Source: Bdellovibrionales bacterium (GTDB taxonomy: Bacteria; Bdellovibrionota; Bdellovibrionia; Bdellovibrionales; UBA1609). From it: a stretch of DNA of 64,000 bases. The DNA lies in NCBI GenBank assembly GCA_965261545.1, contig CBDHDF010000010.1, positions 800,001 through 864,000 on the forward strand, in the 5' to 3' direction. This document shows, piece by piece, positions 7,057-52,354 of this stretch. The notes below the pieces were generated by a model. The model did no database searches. It saw only the letters and a list, made by a program, of their open reading frames with translations, and was not told where the DNA came from. Made by a program: the position numbers and the translations under genes. Each line of letters begins with the position of its first letter. The stretch's first letter is position 1.

Positions 7057-7137
7057 TACCCTAACCATAGTCTCGTATTCCAGCATTTCTCAACGCCTTA
7101 GAGCCCTCTTATAAGGGGACCTTATTTATTAAAAAAC

Positions 7138-8966
7138 TTAGTTGTCAAAACGGTCACCGTATTCAATGGCAAACCTGTTCATGGCTGGCTTCCAGTTGTG
7201 TAATGGTCGTGTCCATCGCTTAGAGGCCATTTTTATCGCTAAATATACAACTTTTAAAGCCGACCGATCACTGGGAAATATCTTACGATTTCTGATCGCC
7301 TTGCGGATCACGCTATTTAACGACTCTATGGCGTTTGTGGTATAAAAAATCTTTCTGATTTCATCCGGATAATCGAAAATAGTGATGAGATTGTCCCAAT
7401 TCCTACGCCAAGACTTTTCAATATTCGGATACTTTGAAGACCACTTGGTACAAAATTCCTCAAGGGCCTTTTCAGCTTCTGTCAGAGTCGTAGAGCCATA
7501 AATGGACTTGAGGTCTTGGGCGACAGCTTTCATATTCTTGGAAGGAACATAGCGAAGGGAATTGCGGACCATATGGACAATGCACAGTTGCACTTTAGAC
7601 TTGGGAAAAGCCGCTGAAATGGCTTGAGGAAAACCTGTAAGACCATCTACAGAAAATATAAATACGTCTTTCAACCCTCGATTTTGCAGCTCAGTCAAAA
7701 CACTCAACCAAAACTTTGAACCCTCATTTTCAGAAATCCATAGGCCCAACAAGTCTTTCTGACCCTCCTCTGTAATACCAAGAGCTAGGTAAATCGCCTT
7801 ATTAATAACTCTCTTGTCTTGATGGACCTTCACCACGATACAGTCCAAAAATACGATAGGGTAAGTGCTATCCAAGGGGCGGTTCTGCCAAGCCGTAACT
7901 TCATCAATAACAGCATCCGTCACGTTGGCTATCACTGAGTGGGATATCTCTGCACCATGGTAGAGGTCTTTGATAGCTCCTTGAATATCCCTGGTCGTCA
8001 TTCCCCTCGCATAGAGGGTCAGAATACTGTCTTCAAAGCCCTCAAGACGAGTCTTGCCTTTGGGAATGACTTGGGGCTCAAAGGAGGCACTTCGGTCACG
8101 GGGGACCTGAAGCTCCACCTCGCCTTTCTCTCCCTTTATGGTCTTTCTACTGTAACCATTGCGAGTGTTGGATTTGAGGGTCTCAGACTTCTCATGCCTC
8201 TCATAACCTAGGTGATCGTCCATTTCCGCATTAAGAGCTGTCTCTAAAACAACCTTCATCAGTTGATCCGTTATGTCGGATAAATCCTTTTGGGTCTTGA
8301 CCTTCTTCGCTAGTTCCTTGCCTATCGAGTAGGCAGTGGGAACTTCCCCCACTGCCCCTCACAGAACCGTGCTTGAAAGTCTCCCCTCACACGGCTCCTA
8401 TGATTTTCCGTTTCATTAGGCTCCTCCTCAGCATAACCAAGTTGGCCTGACTACTTCCATAAATCATGTGACCCCTTCGCTCCATTCTCATTACAAGAAC
8501 TTCATCACTACTACGAATCACTCTGCCCCTGGTTGGTGGCATCGGTATTTAGCACTTCGGGGGTCTCCCTTATAGCGTTTCCCTTATCATCCACCAGCAG
8601 GTTCCCACGTTCCGATACGAAGCCTGTACTAGGTTCATGCCCCCTATACACCGCACGCCGTCTAGATCGGTCATCAGGCTTCCTCTAGACTTATCCCGAC
8701 GGAGACAACCTTCCTTCGGTTTTGACGCGACTGTTAATCTTTCGATGCGTCGTCGGTGGGTTTGCTTTCGCTCATCTCCCTAGTACTTACATGACCGTTT
8801 ACTACGGCCTTTTCCTTGCTCGCTCACTACAAGGGCCTTGCCTCCCATGCAGCAGCAAGGTTGTTTGCACTCAAATCCTGAAATCCGAGTGCGGAGGACC
8901 TACCTCCATCTTCACATCAGCATGTCACCTCCGTGACTTCGTGGCACACATTGTCTTGATATCCAT
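7138..8966 (-). CDS. IS256 transposase split by a group II intron (exon 1 8950-8966, exon 2 7138-8323)
   Basis: Joined exons read MDIKTIGKELAK..., as in 50388-51590; RNGYS, VPRDR, FLDCI, YTTNAIESLN motifs. Confidence 0.9.
8324..8949 (-). ncRNA. ORF-less group II intron (626 nt, IIB/class D-like)
   Basis: 5' GTGTG; 3' ...TACTCGAT; domain V GAGCCGTGTGAGGGGAGACTTTCAAGCACGGTTC; domain VI hairpin; loop GTTGTC complementary to exon end GACAAT. Confidence 0.93.
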
Positions 8967-9037
8967 TCTGCCTTCTCCTTTCAGGATGATAGTTCATCCT
9001 AATATGATTCGGCAGTTACACAAAATAGTTTACAGGC

Positions 9038-10459
9038 TCATTTTGTAAGGTGGGCCTCACAAAGATAAGTTAAAAAGCATAGAGTTAAATGTCCAATAAT
9101 CCTCTGGTCTGTCCAATGGAAAACAGGACGTGTTTTCAAAGTCCCTTTTAACTCACCAAAAGCATCTTCAATTTTCCACAATTCTTTGTAGTTGATAATA
9201 ATCTCATCTGCCGTCAAGTCTTTGACATTTGTAAGGACGGCAAAAAAACCATCAATTTTTTCATCTAATTCTATTTGTTCTGCATTTAATTCAGGTTTTT
9301 TATTTTTGTCGTCAGCCATCTTTACATATTTCTTATAACCTTTATTGGAAACAAAAGTACTAGACTGAACACCTTTAGAAGATAGTTTTCCTTCGATCTT
9401 TTCAAGAAGGGATTCTCTAGATTTTTTATCTCTCTCTGCTCTTTTCCTAGACCAAGTCACAATACATCTATGCCCCCCATGGTCTGTTTCGTAAACAGCA
9501 AGCTCATTCTCATATACCCAGCTAAAACGATTTAAATCATAGACCTCTTGTTTCTTTTCTTTTTTTAAAGATCCAAGCTTCATACCAACAATAAACTCGC
9601 TTTGATCCTCACTGAGTTTGTCAGTATTAGCCTTTGATAAAAGCCCCCTATCAGCCACAAAAATGAAACGGCGTACATTAAACTTTTTTCTCATTTTATC
9701 AACAATATCTGAAAGCGTCTTGCCTTCAAAAGTATTACCAGGGAAAACCTCAAAACCTAAAGGGATGCCATCCCGATTCACCAACAAACCAAAGACAACT
9801 TGGGTGCAGTCTGATCGTCTCTCTTTACTATAGCCAAATTGACGAAGTTTCCCTAAGTCTGTTCTTGTACTCTCGAAGCGTAAGGTTGTTAAATCATACA
9901 ACACAATGTCTACTTGGAAATTAAATAAATCTCGCCCCACCCAATAAAGCGAGTTCTCTATTTCATCCTTATGGGAGGCAAGTAAGTCCATAGACCGATA
10001 AATATGCTGGAGACTCAAATCACCCTTAATCATGTCTGGGTAAAAAGATTTTTGCCAATACTCAAAAACCTTTAACTTGGAACTAGGAGCAATAAATCGG
10101 CTGGCAACTAAGGTAAAAATCACCTTACATAAATCAAATTGAACTTTCTCATGAGAATCTTTTATGTCTTTGAGGGTCTTATTGATACCCAGTTGATCAA
10201 ACAACTTTTGTAAAATCAGCAAGGGACCCAAAATGAAAGTCTCTTCGATGTAAAGCTCCTTAGCCAATTGACTCACAGTGAGAAGCTCTCGGTGGCGGGA
10301 TACGGCCTGCGCCAAACTATTAATCTTATCCTCTCCTCCTTCTCCAGCCTTACCTAAGGACATGAGCATGCGTTTTTTGGATTTGCCTTTTTCTCTGTAG
10401 GACTCCACAAGGTGGTAGTAGCACTGACCTTTTGAGTTTTTAGTCGTTTGGATGTACAT
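9038..10459 (-). pseudogene. IS1634 transposase, C-terminally truncated
   Basis: LYDLTTLRFE, FGYSKERRSD, VADRG, LWKIEDAFGELK, RPVFHWT; the stop codon is supplied by the IS256 end. Confidence 0.88.
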
Positions 10460-22230: not shown

Positions 22231-24784
22231 CAATGGCATTCGTTTTTGCAGAAGGTTTTTCCACATTTTTCTGACTCCCTCTAACATACTGAGTTAAGGG
22301 GGCTTTTATCTTTTTTCTTTTTCCGAAAAAAAATACTTGAGTCCACCCCATCGTTGTGTCACATTATATTTGAACCATTCCCAAAGGGGAGAGACTCAAA
22401 TGGACCCACGCATAGAGACATTGCCTTCAACAACTTTTTTTGGAAGACGCTTGACGCGCAAGCAAATTGCCGACATTCAAAAGACGGTGGCGCTATTTCC
22501 TTCTTTAAGTCGCCGTGAACTGGGTTATACAGTTTGTGAACATCTTGGTTGGCTAACTCCCAAAGGTGATCATCGCATCCAATCGTGCCTTCGTATGCTT
22601 GAGACGCTAGAGGAACTTGACATTCTATCCCTGCCAGAAAAAGACATGTCAAAGCGGAGTGTCCCCTCCAAAAAAATCACTTGGACACACCGAACAGATG
22701 AAAAGCCTCTCATCAACGATAAACTAGACTCATTGACCCCACTTTCTTTGCAAATCGTAACTGATCAAGAGGCCATTAAGGAATGGAATGAAGTTGTCGA
22801 TCGGCATCATTATCTCAATTACAGACGTCCCTTTGGTCCCCACTTACGCTATTTCATCTTAGATAATTGTGGGCGAAGATTGGGTTGTCTTTTATTTGAA
22901 GCTGGCACATCCACTTTGCCTTGCCGTGATGAATGGATCGGTTGGCAAAATCGAGCTTACAAAAAGCACTTGAATTTAGTGGTGAACAATAGTCGATTTT
23001 TGATCTTTCCCTGGGTAAAGGTTCGCCATCTTGCTTCGATGGCTTTATCTATGGCAACTCGCCAACTTCCCACAGACTGGGAGTTAAAACATGCTTTCAA
23101 ACCTGTACTCATGGAGACTTTTGTCGACCTTACCAAATTTAATGCCACGAGCTATCGTGCTGCCAACTGGCTTTATTTGGGCAAAACAAATGGGAGTCGT
23201 GCCTACAAAAATGTAAAGGGAAAAACTCAAAAAGGTGTTTATGTTCAACCTCTGACAAAGAATTATCAGTCTATCTTATTGAATGGCCCCCAATGCGCTA
23301 TCAAGAAACCCGTCGGGAAACCCACCATCAAGCCACATAAGAACTTGGCTGAGCCTATGCTAGAGGACTCTTTTGTGCATCTTTGGCAAAACATCATCAA
23401 GACAGTGGTTATCATTGCAGATGAGTACGACCGAACCTGGCAAAAGCGTCAACGTGTCTTGAATACATTGTTGATTATACTTTTCATCTTCCGACTTGTT
23501 TTCTCTAAAGGAAAACAAGGTTATGATACAACTTTGATTGAACTTTGGGAGCAGTGTCGCATATTAGACATTGAACTCCCTCAACCTAAACCAGTTCGGG
23601 CATCCACTATGTGTAGTGCACGGGCTAAAGTAGATGAAAATATATTTAAAGTTTTGCATGATGAAATTCTTAAACAAGACGGTATATCCAATTCTAGTAC
23701 CTTATGGAAGGGCCATAAGGTTTTCGCAGTGGATGGATCGAAAATAAATTTACCACGTCAACTCGTAGATAATGGGTATCAGCAACCATGGGAAAAAGCA
23801 TGGTACCCTCAAGGTCTTGTCAGTTGCCTGTACCAACTACAGTCGAAGATTCCTGTGGATTTTGATCTCTTTGCCCATAACAATGAGAGAAAGGCTGCAC
23901 AAACTCATTTCAAAAAATTGTTTGAAAACGATGTTGTGGTTTATGATCGTGGCTATTATTCCTACGAAATGCTTCATGAGCATAAGGTGCGAAGTCTGCA
24001 TGCGGTGTTTAGGATAAGGAGAAATGCCAACACTGTTTTTGATGAATTTATTAATAATGATCAAAAAGACTCAGTGATCCAAGTCATTCCTAGCAAGCAA
24101 ATTCTGAAAGAACTACATAAAAAAAAGCCACAAGACGACTTCAAAGCCTACGCTTTGCGTTTGGTCAAATATAAAATTGGACAAACTACTTTTGTTCTAG
24201 GAACAACCTTAATGGATCAAAAAAAATATTCCATTGATGATCTGGCCAATCTCTATCATGGACGCTGGAGTATAGAGGAACTGTACAAAATATCCAAAGA
24301 ACTGATGACCATTGAAGAGTTTCATTCTCAAAGTGAAAGGGGAGTCAAACAAGAATTGTTTGCACACTTCACACTTATCACTCTGACAAGATTATTTTCC
24401 AACTACACGGAAGACCGTCTTAATACATCTCAATCCCATAGTAAAAAACAAACCATGCAGACAAACTTTAAAAACAATTTACTGACAATTGCAAGAAATA
24501 TTGAAGGTCTTTTTCTTCAACAAAAGGTAGTGCTTAGTAAAACCCTCAATTGCATCATTACAAATATGAAGACCTGCCGACAAAGGCTACGTCCGAATAG
24601 GCATTACGACCGAGTTTCTAGAAAACCCATCGGAGTATGGAGACCCAGTAAAGAGGTTAGGGGGGCTATGGCCAACGGATAATCACATGGATCAAAGAAA
24701 AAAACTTGGGGTTAGCCCACCCCCGAGGAGTTAGAGGTTCAAATCCTTAACCGAATGGGATCTCTCACTAAACGAATGCCATTG
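22231..24784 (+). mobile_element. IS4-family element IS4-C (2554 bp)
   Basis: 15-bp IR CAATGGCATTCGTTT; 10-bp TSD CCCCAACCCC; inserted between istA and istB. Confidence 0.95.
22400..24682 (+). CDS. DUF4338/DruA-like domain fused to IS4 DDE transposase (~760 aa)
   Basis: N half: HHYL, LRY, RDEWIGW, VVNNSRFLIFPW, LAS, ETFVD, YRAANWLYLGKT; C half: FAVDGSKINLP, YDRGY, YHGRWSIEELYK. Confidence 0.88.
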   Translation: MDPRIETLPSTTFFGRRLTRKQIADIQKTVALFPSLSRRELGYTVCEHLGWLTPKGDHRIQSCLRMLETLEELDILSLPEKDMSKRSVPSKKITWTHRTDEKPLINDKLDSLTPLSLQIVTDQEAIKEWNEVVDRHHYLNYRRPFGPHLRYFILDNCGRRLGCLLFEAGTSTLPCRDEWIGWQNRAYKKHLNLVVNNSRFLIFPWVKVRHLASMALSMATRQLPTDWELKHAFKPVLMETFVDLTKFNATSYRAANWLYLGKTNGSRAYKNVKGKTQKGVYVQPLTKNYQSILLNGPQCAIKKPVGKPTIKPHKNLAEPMLEDSFVHLWQNIIKTVVIIADEYDRTWQKRQRVLNTLLIILFIFRLVFSKGKQGYDTTLIELWEQCRILDIELPQPKPVRASTMCSARAKVDENIFKVLHDEILKQDGISNSSTLWKGHKVFAVDGSKINLPRQLVDNGYQQPWEKAWYPQGLVSCLYQLQSKIPVDFDLFAHNNERKAAQTHFKKLFENDVVVYDRGYYSYEMLHEHKVRSLHAVFRIRRNANTVFDEFINNDQKDSVIQVIPSKQILKELHKKKPQDDFKAYALRLVKYKIGQTTFVLGTTLMDQKKYSIDDLANLYHGRWSIEELYKISKELMTIEEFHSQSERGVKQELFAHFTLITLTRLFSNYTEDRLNTSQSHSKKQTMQTNFKNNLLTIARNIEGLFLQQKVVLSKTLNCIITNMKTCRQRLRPNRHYDRVSRKPIGVWRPSKEVRGAMANG

Positions 24785-25678: not shown

Positions 25679-25816
25679 CTCACTTCACCTCGACACACCT
25701 TGCTAATCAAAATATCACTCTCAACAACTTAAACTCAGTCAGGATAAAATCATAAAAATTGCTTCGAGGTCAAAGGAACCCATGAAAAGTCCGTCAAAAT
25801 AAAGTATTGGGTCACA
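25679..25816 (-). mobile_element. Orphan IS-like terminus (IS-F), second copy
   Basis: Repeat of 5354-5491. Confidence 0.6.
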
Positions 25817-26072
25817 AACGCTATAAGGGAGACCCCCGAAGTGCTAAATACCGATGCCACCAACCAGGGGCAGAGTGATTCGTAGTAGTGATGAAGTTCT
25901 TGTAATGAGAATGGAGCGAAGGGGTCACATGATTTATGGAAGTAGTCAGGCCAACTTGGTTATGCTGAGGAGGAGCCTAATGAAACGGAAAATCATAGGA
26001 GCCGTGTGAGGGGAGACTTTCAAGCACGGTTCTGTGAGGGGCAGTGGGGGAAGTTCCCACTGCCTACTCGAT
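25817..26072 (+). ncRNA. 5'-truncated copy of the ORF-less group II intron
   Basis: Matches the reverse complement of 8324-8579, including domains V and VI. Confidence 0.9.
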
Positions 26073-26180
26073 AGGCAAGGAACTAGCGAAGAACGTCAAG
26101 ACCCAAAAGGATTTATCCGACATAACGGGTCAACTGATGAAGGGTGTTTTAGAGACGGCCCTTAATGCGGAAATGGACGA
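26073..26180 (+). pseudogene. IS256 transposase exon-2 fragment
   Basis: GKELAKNVKTQKDLSDITGQLMK...ALNAEMD. Confidence 0.9.
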
Positions 26181-26417
26181 ATACCTCTCTGTAAATGCCC
26201 TTGTTTTAGGGTTGAAGTGTATATAGCATAACCCCATAATGTTCCTTGTTTTTCTCAAAACACATGACTAACCTTGGCGCAGCCAGAACCAAGAGCTAAG
26301 TCTGAAGTCAAGTCTTAACCCCTAAGTCTATCTCTGCTGTAATCCTATCTCATAGCTCTTCAGAGGTCGGGAATTAAATTACGTTCGAATTTTTCAAACA
26401 TAATGACAAGTAAGGAA

Positions 26418-50238: not shown

Positions 50239-50387
50239 GACGAACCCTCCTTGGTCTGATGTGCAACAACAAATATTCAAACAGATACTTAGGCAAAAGT
50301 CTACGAACTTTTTGGAGCCTGTAAACTATTTTGTGTAACTGCCGAATCATATTAGGATGAACTATCATCCTGAAAGGAGAAGGCAAA

Positions 50388-51590
50388 ATGGATATCAAGA
50401 CAATAGGCAAGGAACTAGCGAAGAACGTCAAGACCCAAAAGGATTTATCCGACATAACGGGTCAACTGATGAAGGTTGTTTTAGAGACAGCTCTTAATGC
50501 GGAAATGGACGATCACCTAGGTTATGAGAGGCATGAGAAGTCTGAGACCCGCAAATCCAACACTCGCAATGGTTACAGTAGAAAGACCATAAAGGGAGAG
50601 AAAGGCGAGGTGGAGCTTCAGGTCCCCCGTGACCGAAGTGCCTCCTTTGAGCCCCAAGTCATTCCCAAAGGCAAGACTCGTCTTGAGGGCTTTGAAGACA
50701 GTATTCTGACCCTCTATGCGAGGGGAATGACGACCAGGGATATTCAAGGAGCTATCAAAGACCTCTACCATGGTGCAGAGATATCCCACTCAGTGATAGC
50801 CAACGTGACGGATGCTGTTATTGATGAAGTTACGGCTTGGCAGAACCGCCCCTTGGATAGCACTTACCCTATCGTATTTTTGGACTGTATCGTGGTGAAG
50901 GTCCATCAAGACAAGAGAGTTATTAATAAGGCGATTTACCTAGCTCTTGGTATTACAGAGGAGGGTCAGAAAGACTTGTTGGGCCTATGGATTTCTGAAA
51001 ATGAGGGTTCAAAGTTTTGGTTGAGTGTTTTGACTGAGCTGCAAAATCGAGGGTTGAAAGACGTATTTATATTTTCTGTAGATGGTCTTACAGGTTTTCC
51101 TCAAGCCATTTCAGCGGCTTTTCCCAAGTCTAAAGTACAACTGTGCATTGTCCATATGGTCCGCAATTCCCTTCGCTATGTTCCTTCCAAGGATATGAAA
51201 GCTGTCGCCCAAGACCTCAAGTCCATTTATGGCTCTACGACTCTGACAGAAGCTGAAAAGGCCCTTGAGGAATTTTGTACCAAGTGGTCTTCAAAGTATC
51301 CGAATATTGAAAAGTCTTGGCGTAGGAATTGGGACAATCTCATCACTATTTTCGATTATCCGGATGAAATCAGAAAGATTTTTTATACCACAAACGCCAT
51401 AGAGTCGTTAAATAGCGTGATCCGCAAGGCGATCAGAAATCGTAAGATATTTCCCAGTGATCGGTCGGCTTTAAAAGTTGTATATTTAGCGATAAAAATG
51501 GCCTCTAAGCGATGGACACGACCATTACACAACTGGAAGCCAGCCATGAACAGGTTTGCCATTGAATACGGTGACCGTTTTGACAACTAA
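50388..51590 (+). CDS. IS256 transposase, 400 aa
   Basis: Mutator-type motifs as in copy 1. Confidence 0.95.
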   Translation: MDIKTIGKELAKNVKTQKDLSDITGQLMKVVLETALNAEMDDHLGYERHEKSETRKSNTRNGYSRKTIKGEKGEVELQVPRDRSASFEPQVIPKGKTRLEGFEDSILTLYARGMTTRDIQGAIKDLYHGAEISHSVIANVTDAVIDEVTAWQNRPLDSTYPIVFLDCIVVKVHQDKRVINKAIYLALGITEEGQKDLLGLWISENEGSKFWLSVLTELQNRGLKDVFIFSVDGLTGFPQAISAAFPKSKVQLCIVHMVRNSLRYVPSKDMKAVAQDLKSIYGSTTLTEAEKALEEFCTKWSSKYPNIEKSWRRNWDNLITIFDYPDEIRKIFYTTNAIESLNSVIRKAIRNRKIFPSDRSALKVVYLAIKMASKRWTRPLHNWKPAMNRFAIEYGDRFDN

Positions 51591-51684
51591 GTTTTTTAAT
51601 AAGGTCCACCACCTGCCTTATAAGGGGGCTTAAAAGCCCCTCTAAGGCGTTGACAGAAGTACTGGAATACCGAGACTATGGTTA

Positions 51685-51750
51685 GGGTAATATAGTATGG
51701 GAACCTAAATACATGCCCTCTTGGTGCAGATTTGGGTTCCCATTTTTTTT
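51685..51750 (+). terminator. Hairpin plus U-tract in the IS256 3' arm
   Basis: ATGGGAACCTAAAT...ATTTGGGTTCCCAT followed by a T run; diverged second copy at 51813-51877. Confidence 0.6.
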
Positions 51751-51769
51751 CATATTTCATCCCAATTCT

Positions 51770-51950
51770 GGTATTTCTCGAATATCCTAAGTTAAAAAAA
51801 ATAAAAAAAAGGGGGTAATATAGTATGGGAACCTAAACACATGAACCCTTTGATGAGATTGGAATTTCCATTTTTTTGAGAGAGCCATTGCTGATTTTTT
51901 TTCAACCAAGATGATAATTATTTATTTGAGTTCTTTCCAGTTCTGATATG
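51770..51950 (+). repeat. ~175-bp non-coding module shared by the IS256 and IS-E 3' arms
   Basis: Closely matches the reverse complement of 33084-33254. Confidence 0.85.
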
Positions 51951-52354
51951 ATCCCATTACGGCTCCATAATACAATCAAAAGTCCAGAGTAACTAAAGAG
52001 GCCAATTATATAGACCAGCGAAGATGTCCACCTCCCCATTAACTTATAATGCATTGTGACTGACAAAATCGCTTGAAGGAAAAAATGTCAATTATACATT
52101 GACGAATAATATGGGACTGTGCTTTTTACCAGGAGTGGAGCCACATAAGTGGCTTTAAGATTTAAGAAAAAAATTGCAGTTACACAATTATTTTTACAGT
52201 CCCTCTTTTTGAGGCGAATCTTTTGGAAGCCACTACTGTGGCCTAAACTATTTTTCGACGGGAATTGCTGCTGAATGGCCAACTTACCCTTCCCATAGCA
52301 AAACGAGGTAGAAAGCCTAAGTACACCCAAGAGACACTAGGTCACCTTAGGACC

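Follow-up and report, generated by a model that had tools for sequence, protein, structure and literature searches.

A multi-copy ORF-less class D-type group II intron in IS256 and other mobile elements of a Bdellovibrionales genome, probably left without its helper reverse transcriptase

The element at positions 8324–8949 of the window, i.e., of the whole 64,000-nt stretch of DNA considered here, is confirmed by sequence comparison to be a real ORF-less group II intron of the class D type, belonging to a recently mobile family. It probably represents a non-autonomous class D (IIB) retroelement that has inserted repeatedly and whose helper, a class D reverse transcriptase (RT), has since been broken or lost. 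A non-autonomous group II retroelement had already been proposed in a preliminary description of this DNA, which agrees with the multi-copy spread and with an RT gene reduced to a nine-codon stub. The genome assembly that was searched comprises 4.3 Mb in 11 contigs and is 96.8% complete; 46% of it lies in repeated 24-mers, an extreme load of insertion sequences (IS).

Structure of the Intron and Its Host Gene

The intron lies on the minus strand, has a length of 626 nt, and is identified by Rfam matches, by eight identical full copies in the genome, and by its place in an RNA tree. On this strand, the Rfam model group-II-D1D4-2 matches domain I at 8790–8907 with 88.5 bits, and the Intron_gpII model matches domains V and VI at 8324–8399 with 66 bits. 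The 5′ end, GTGTG, and the 3′ end, CGAT, fit the GUGYG start and the AY end of group II introns, and the junctions with the IS256 exons are exact, without target duplication. The fold of the whole intron outperforms those of all 20 shuffled sequences (z = −4.2).

According to the preliminary description, the intron interrupts codon 6 of the IS256 transposase gene in the sense orientation. This is borne out by the 5′ exon (8950–8966, minus strand), which constitutes the first 17 nt of the transposase gene and agrees at every position with the beginning of the intron-free gene at 50388. The 5′ exon contains IBS1 (8950–8955) and the ATC core of IBS2 (8958–8960). The 3′ exon (7138–8323, minus strand) provides the remainder of the transposase, is open to the stop codon, and begins with the A that corresponds to IBS3; over its 1186 nt it differs from the copy at 50388 at 5 nt, resulting in 4 amino-acid changes. 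The occupied frame and the frame at 50388 both match the IS256 transposase profile NF033543 with 427–430 bits, and the predicted splicing would restore an open transposase frame at this locus.

Domain V (8364–8397, minus strand) forms a hairpin of 34 nt and contains an AGC triad, and domain VI (8327–8361, minus strand) carries a bulged A at 8330, seven nt from the intron end. Together with the 66-bit Rfam match, these features are in line with the earlier impression that both domains are intact. Domain IV is reduced to ca. 78 nt (8398–8475, minus strand) and holds, as noted before, a Shine–Dalgarno-like GAGGAGG (8423–8429), an ATG, and a few codons. The latter form a nine-codon stub (8387–8416, minus strand), which ends inside domain V with GAV and a stop codon. 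The same end inside domain V is observed for the RTs of the relatives L042, L058, and L162, and the stub is most likely what remained when a class D RT gene was deleted and its first and last codons became fused.

We have also considered a splicing-independent start of the transposase at an in-frame GTG in domain VI (8352, yielding a 404-aa frame), which the preliminary description had overlooked. This codon is paired in domain VI with a probability above 0.99 and, being buried in the stem, is unlikely to matter as a bypass of splicing. The outcome of a promoter scan was at chance level.

Class Assignment

Group IIC introns have a CGC triad, a shorter domain V, and no EBS2. The present intron resembles them in its small size and its ORF-less form; however, a IIC assignment is rejected on the basis of the AGC triad, the 34-nt domain V, the EBS2 pairing, and the grouping with class D. 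A further difference concerns the insertion sites. IIC introns are described as inserting downstream of terminator or attC hairpins (PMC4424553), whereas the junction of the present intron shows no terminator hairpin: none of the eight 5′ exons contains a strong hairpin, the best one reaching −7.8 kcal/mol over 45 nt.

The best plasmid matches to the intron are RNAs with 65–71% identity that are located in front of group II RT genes, and the D1–D3 region is 66% identical to those of the relatives L042 and L044. In a tree of 32 D1–D3 sequences, the intron groups with a second ORF-less family of the same genome (100/99) and then with L042 and L044 (93/93). The RT of L042 carries the strict form of the class D C-terminal motif given in PMC4615759, while that of L044 carries a looser form. 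The EBS1, EBS2, and EBS3 pairings are all present, as in class D/IIB, and class D introns are described as having a IIB structure (PMC3552965, PMC4424553). Since its ORF is deleted, the intron has no RT-maturase of its own with the class D C-terminal motif, and the class D label thus rests on the RNA rather than on the protein.

The second ORF-less class-D-type family has a length of ca. 640 nt, is ca. 70% identical to the first, of which it is the sister in the RNA tree, and has its own EBS set and IS targets. Its copies are found at C2:910162-910805, C2:47908-47262, C4:188023-188670, C11:1056592-1055948, and C10:508798-511605. A hybrid intron at C2:463512-464144 has a 5′ part from the second family and a last stretch of 274 nt identical to the family of 8324–8949; its flanks do not belong together, suggesting DNA recombination between two introns. 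Unrelated phyla also contain ORF-less class-D-type introns of 600–700 nt, 6 of the 24 relatives in the alignment being of this kind; such introns are represented by the loci L049, L069, L074, L075, L084, L101, and L043.

Target Recognition

EBS1 (GUUGUC, 8704–8709, minus strand) is located in the d3 loop of the predicted fold and pairs 6/6 with the exon end GACAAU, confirming the pairing proposed in the preliminary description; only 0.6% of the genome positions would pair in this way. The full 6/6 pairing is found at four independent targets, namely IS256, IS3, an Rpn-type gene, and IS1634. In three variant copies EBS1 is changed, and in two of these the altered sequence fits its own flank better than the common EBS1 would (6 vs 4 and 6 vs 5 pairs). 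In the variant at C2:245651 the change worsens the pairing (4/6 vs 5/6). The target at C11:395083 pairs 4/6 with the common EBS1, the truncated copy there having lost its own.

The EBS2 region (8735–8740, minus strand) has the core GAU, which pairs with ATC at −11 to −9 of the 5′ exon. All three pairs are formed in five of the eight target sequences, and in a sixth with a shift of one base, the pairing being short (3–4 pairs). In the variant at C2:291100, EBS2 is altered together with the flank.

EBS3 is assigned to U304 of the intron (8646, minus strand), at an alignment column complementary to the first base of the 3′ exon. Watson–Crick complementarity holds in 23 of 29 rows and, when both families of the present genome are left out, in 21 of 27. 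The column was picked post hoc from a scan of all columns, in which the next best reached 14/25. An alternative EBS3 at intron position 295 failed across the relatives. The locus L161 of strain GR4, which probably corresponds to RmInt2, has a U at the same column. As a U, EBS3 is predicted to accept both the A of IS256 and the G that is the first base of the intron itself, which would lead to head-to-tail tandems. Such tandems are indeed present at two sites, C2:405046/405672 and C11:520568/525126. The tandems of RmInt2 have been ascribed to the pairing of a U at EBS3 with the first G of the intron (PMC4615759), and this explanation would fit both tandems here.

IS256 and Intron Copies in the Window

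The host IS256 copy (7057–9039, minus strand) has its left end at 9039 and is cut at 7057; its right end was not found within 4.5 kb or elsewhere in the window. The element is 100% identical, over 90 + 1269 nt, to the empty copy at C2:97822. It has inserted into an IS1634 transposase gene (9038–10459, minus strand; positions 2–426 of 483 of profile NF033559), the frame of which is thereby shortened, stopping at the left end of IS256, and has the same sense as IS256 and the intron. In the genome, most complete IS256 copies are flanked by 8-bp target duplications.

An intron-free IS256 of 1889 nt is located at 50315–52203 (plus strand), with its gene at 50388–51590. The preliminary description regarded this copy as an empty homing site, and the insertion site between 50404 and 50405 is indeed unoccupied. 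A second intron copy, which had been overlooked, is recognized by sequence comparison and Rfam at 25816–26186 (plus strand); it is 5′-truncated, comprising the last 257 nt of the intron (25816–26072) followed by a short piece of IS256 exon 2. The window also contains a 781-aa ORF (22337–24682) that combines a DruA-like domain with a DDE transposase domain, and transposases make up most of the long ORFs scanned between 702 and 55975.

Distribution in the Genome

In the assembly, the family is represented by 17 5′ ends and 19 3′ ends, and eight copies are identical over 626/626 nt. It had been suggested to count occupied against empty IS256 copies, and this gives 8 against 59 among the 67 IS256 exon-1 anchors. 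IS256, the target named in the preliminary description, is the main one but not the sole one, insertions also being found in IS3, IS1634, and Rpn-type sequences. In total there are eight distinct non-tandem target sequences, IS256 and seven others. The insertions into IS3 and into an Rpn/YhgA-like gene are antisense (22 of 23 and 20 of 22 flank matches empty, respectively), while that into IS1634 is in the sense orientation (35 of 37 empty). Many copies of the family are interrupted by IS insertions. The decayed variants at C2:494623-494891 and C2:291100-293104 have internal deletions between short direct repeats, and their EBS1 sequences fit their own flanks.

The exact pattern of domain VI gave no match in public genome and metagenome contigs, and a search of 60 related genomes for the intron gave one match, of only 41 nt. 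A test for the insertion bias toward the lagging-strand template that is expected of class D/IIB introns gave 11 of 17 introns against 35 of 59 empty sites (Fisher p = 0.78; null at three window sizes), in a genome with scrambled GC skew and undefinable replichores.

Reverse Transcriptases and the Putative Helper

The genome contains 30 matches to PF00078. The intact group II RT frames fall into three families, of 495, 463, and 435 aa, all of which lie outside class D in the RT tree (100/100, with long branches), and their RNAs match another Rfam model, D1D4-6. A fourth RT family belongs to class D, in the same RT clade as the class D relatives (95/98), and none of its copies is intact, each being disrupted by IS insertions, a stop, or frameshifts. 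Neither an intact class D RT gene nor any further class D ribozyme or RT was found by profile and tblastn searches of the assembly, a draft of 11 contigs.

The preliminary description had suggested searching the genome for a full-length, RT-bearing parent of the intron; the search was carried out, and no direct parent was found. The genome's own class D intron does not qualify, as its partial RNA does not group with the present intron, and a helper supplied by it would consequently be heterologous. Most heterologous pairs of the RmInt type are reported to have lost mobility (PMC4615759). Domain IVa of the intron resembles that of the foreign L044 (p = 0.006) and not that of the class D intron of this genome (p = 0.63; ten comparisons, uncorrected), and shows no likeness to the introns of the genome that carry non-class-D RTs. 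The intron had been said to be a dead relic if neither splicing nor a cognate RT could be found. The searches of the assembly gave no intact cognate RT, but the family, with its eight identical copies, has clearly spread in recent times, which argues against an old relic.

Of nine other genomes with such ORF-less introns, five contain a full-length class-D-like RT and one only split pieces, whereas two have nothing beyond distant RTs or a short fragment, and one has none; one plasmid record with such an intron has no RT. An apparently stranded state is therefore not rare in drafts.

Insertions of the 463-aa RT intron lie immediately downstream of sequences resembling group II 3′ ends, namely at C11:346168 behind the class D intron and at C10:511248 antisense inside the second ORF-less family. 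A 92% variant of it, with its 5′ part lost, lies before IS256 exon 2 at C2:263416 and probably once sat behind a copy of the 8324–8949 family. A third ORF-less family (C11:956222-955493, C11:904729-904502, C2:524829-525466) derives from the intron of the 435-aa RT (C7:389650-387777, intact). Two non-intron RTs are located at C4:59374-60435 and C11:1009752-1010654, one with a YMDD and the other with a YVDD motif; the YMDD one is presumably DGR-like.

The history that we propose on the basis of the sequences is as follows. As the sequences show, an ancestral class D intron lost nearly all of its RT gene while keeping domains I–VI; its RNA carries EBS1, EBS2, and EBS3 suited to codon 6 of IS256 and to look-alike sites in other mobile elements, and it has given rise to many exact insertions without target duplication. 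Following the biology of class D introns, transcription of the RNA would begin in the host IS or upstream of it; the RNA would then be spliced as a lariat with an RT-maturase acting in trans and reverse spliced into DNA, where copying would start from a replication-fork primer. Most likely, a class D RT served as the helper and was later disrupted by IS insertions or lost, and the intron family may now be stranded.

Alternative Explanations

Instead of having been lost, an intact class D RT intron could be present in the organism or its population and be missing or mis-assembled in the draft, so that an active parent would coexist with its ORF-less passenger. We consider this unlikely, even though the assembly has 11 contigs, a completeness of 96.8%, and 46% repeated sequence, and full-length class-D-like RTs occur in five of the nine other genomes with such introns. 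The two frameshifting indels of the RT copy at C11:345k are not seen in public contigs, which is also in its favor; however, the same contigs hold both IS junctions that break class D RT copies, although phasing of the copies is impossible, and the profile and tblastn searches of the assembly revealed no more class D ribozymes or RTs. It is less likely still, and in our view rather improbable, that the intron remains mobile by means of an RT of another lineage, i.e., one of the three intact non-class-D families of 495, 463, and 435 aa. These are the sole intact group II RT genes found, eight intron copies remain identical, and the two ORF-less families of the class D type are not accompanied by an intact class D gene. 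Against this, the RTs in question fall outside class D (100/100), their RNAs match model D1D4-6, and domain IVa of the intron is unlike theirs. The 463-aa family variant that ends on the IS256 exon 2 junction (C2:263416) could be taken as a trace of such a helper, but this family inserts behind sequences resembling the 3′ ends of other introns, a habit that explains the common junction without requiring a protein in common. Many intron copies are moreover IS-disrupted, as the class D RT copies are, and the two may thus have decayed over the same period, while the published cross-activity is, as far as reported in PMC2882425 and PMC4615759, between close relatives. As the helper, we accordingly favor a lost or broken class D RT, followed by an intact one missing from the assembly and, last, by a cross-class RT.

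A different alternative concerns the mode of spread. The intron could have entered IS256 once and then spread chiefly as a passenger of IS256 or by gene conversion, with the transposase output depending on splicing, and the preliminary description had indeed pictured the intron as riding on IS256. The occupied IS256 copies, however, represent at least five haplotypes, each closest to different empty copies; they have no private SNP in common and differ at SNPs ca. 20 nt on either side of the junction, which indicates repeated insertion into existing IS copies rather than riding. The host element in the window points in the same direction, being identical to the empty C2:97822 and devoid of a right end. 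A pair of occupied and empty copies with the same left flank (C11:520478, C10:779422) was considered and discarded, as only 128 nt are in common and the haplotypes differ. Passenger moves may still account for part of the copies: three of the eight occupied elements have target duplications of 8 bp at their ends, one of them (C10:131711) being a complete IS with one intron, 2515 nt in length, and the commonest SNP block is found in four occupied pieces. Nevertheless, the seven non-IS256 target sequences cannot come about in this way, and 59 of the 67 IS256 sites are empty. In addition, RmInt1, the model for class D, gives only 0.07% ligated exons (PMC3035460). On these sequence comparisons, spread as a passenger or by gene conversion is largely refuted as the main route, and we regard it as very unlikely.

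The proposed dependence of transposase expression on splicing may hold for individual loci at most, and it does not hold for the family: with 59 empty sites and an intact frame in 43 of 45 complete empty copies, the supply of transposase is independent of splicing, and a full frame remains in only three of nine occupied exon 2s. The 0.07% ligated exons of RmInt1 are read by its authors as a silencing of the IS (PMC3035460; PMC4238363), and on this figure the restoration of IS256 would likely be minimal here. The likelier effect of the intron is therefore a knock-down of a minority of IS256 copies and not control of the family.

Comparison with Known Systems

As a class D ribozyme, the intron is compact, at 626 nt, and comes with natural EBS variants; with three ORF-less and four RT families in one genome, the specificity of helper RTs is open to direct test. 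A greater significance would arise only if the helper were of another class; a single protein would then serve unrelated ORF-less families, a bacterial step toward a general splicing factor.

The intron shares with RmInt1 of Sinorhizobium meliloti, as described in PMC3035460, PMC4238363, and PMC4615759, the class D type of ribozyme, the sense insertion in an IS transposase gene, and the targeting through EBS1, EBS2, and EBS3; the RmInt1 intron-encoded protein (IEP) is also able to act in trans. RmInt1, however, encodes its RT, targets ISRm2011-2, and forms a G–C pair at EBS3, whereas the present intron has no ORF, targets codon 6 of IS256, forms a U–A pair, and fills 8 of 67 sites. RmInt2 of S. 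meliloti GR4 (PMC4615759) is similar in its EBS3 U, head-to-tail doubles, relaxed EBS2, and identical copies in an IS. It differs in encoding an RT and in targeting IS inverted repeats, and its tandem comes from a plasmid assay, while two are found here in a genome assembly.

Among ORF-less introns, those of the TeI3 type from Thermosynechococcus elongatus (PMC2882425) show the same deletion of the ORF, proliferation, divergence of EBS to new targets, and insertion into IS elements and other introns, as well as the trans mobilization that we propose for the present intron. They belong to IIB1/CL1 and are accompanied by closely related intact driver RTs in the genome, in contrast to the class D intron studied here, for which no intact cognate RT was found in the draft. 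C.te.I1 of Clostridium tetani (PMC4424553) is likewise a bacterial intron that has no ORF and no cognate IEP in the genome that carries it, but it is described as robustly self-splicing, with no IEP-related gene in its genome, whereas the present intron is multi-copy, lies in mobile DNA, and occurs in a genome where the class D RT genes are broken and the intact RT genes are unrelated. According to the 2015 review in PMC4424553, bacterial ORF-less introns are rare, and a related IEP is almost always encoded in the same genome. A genome survey counts ORF-less introns as a category of their own (PMC8919778).

Titles and abstract openings in the literature revealed no group II intron in IS256, which supplementary survey tables may nevertheless list, and no such group II proliferation for relatives of Bdellovibrio. 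ORF loss, trans-mobilization, retargeting through EBS changes, targeting of IS elements, and tandems are already known from other systems, and the present intron is a clear natural instance of them with IS256 as the host.
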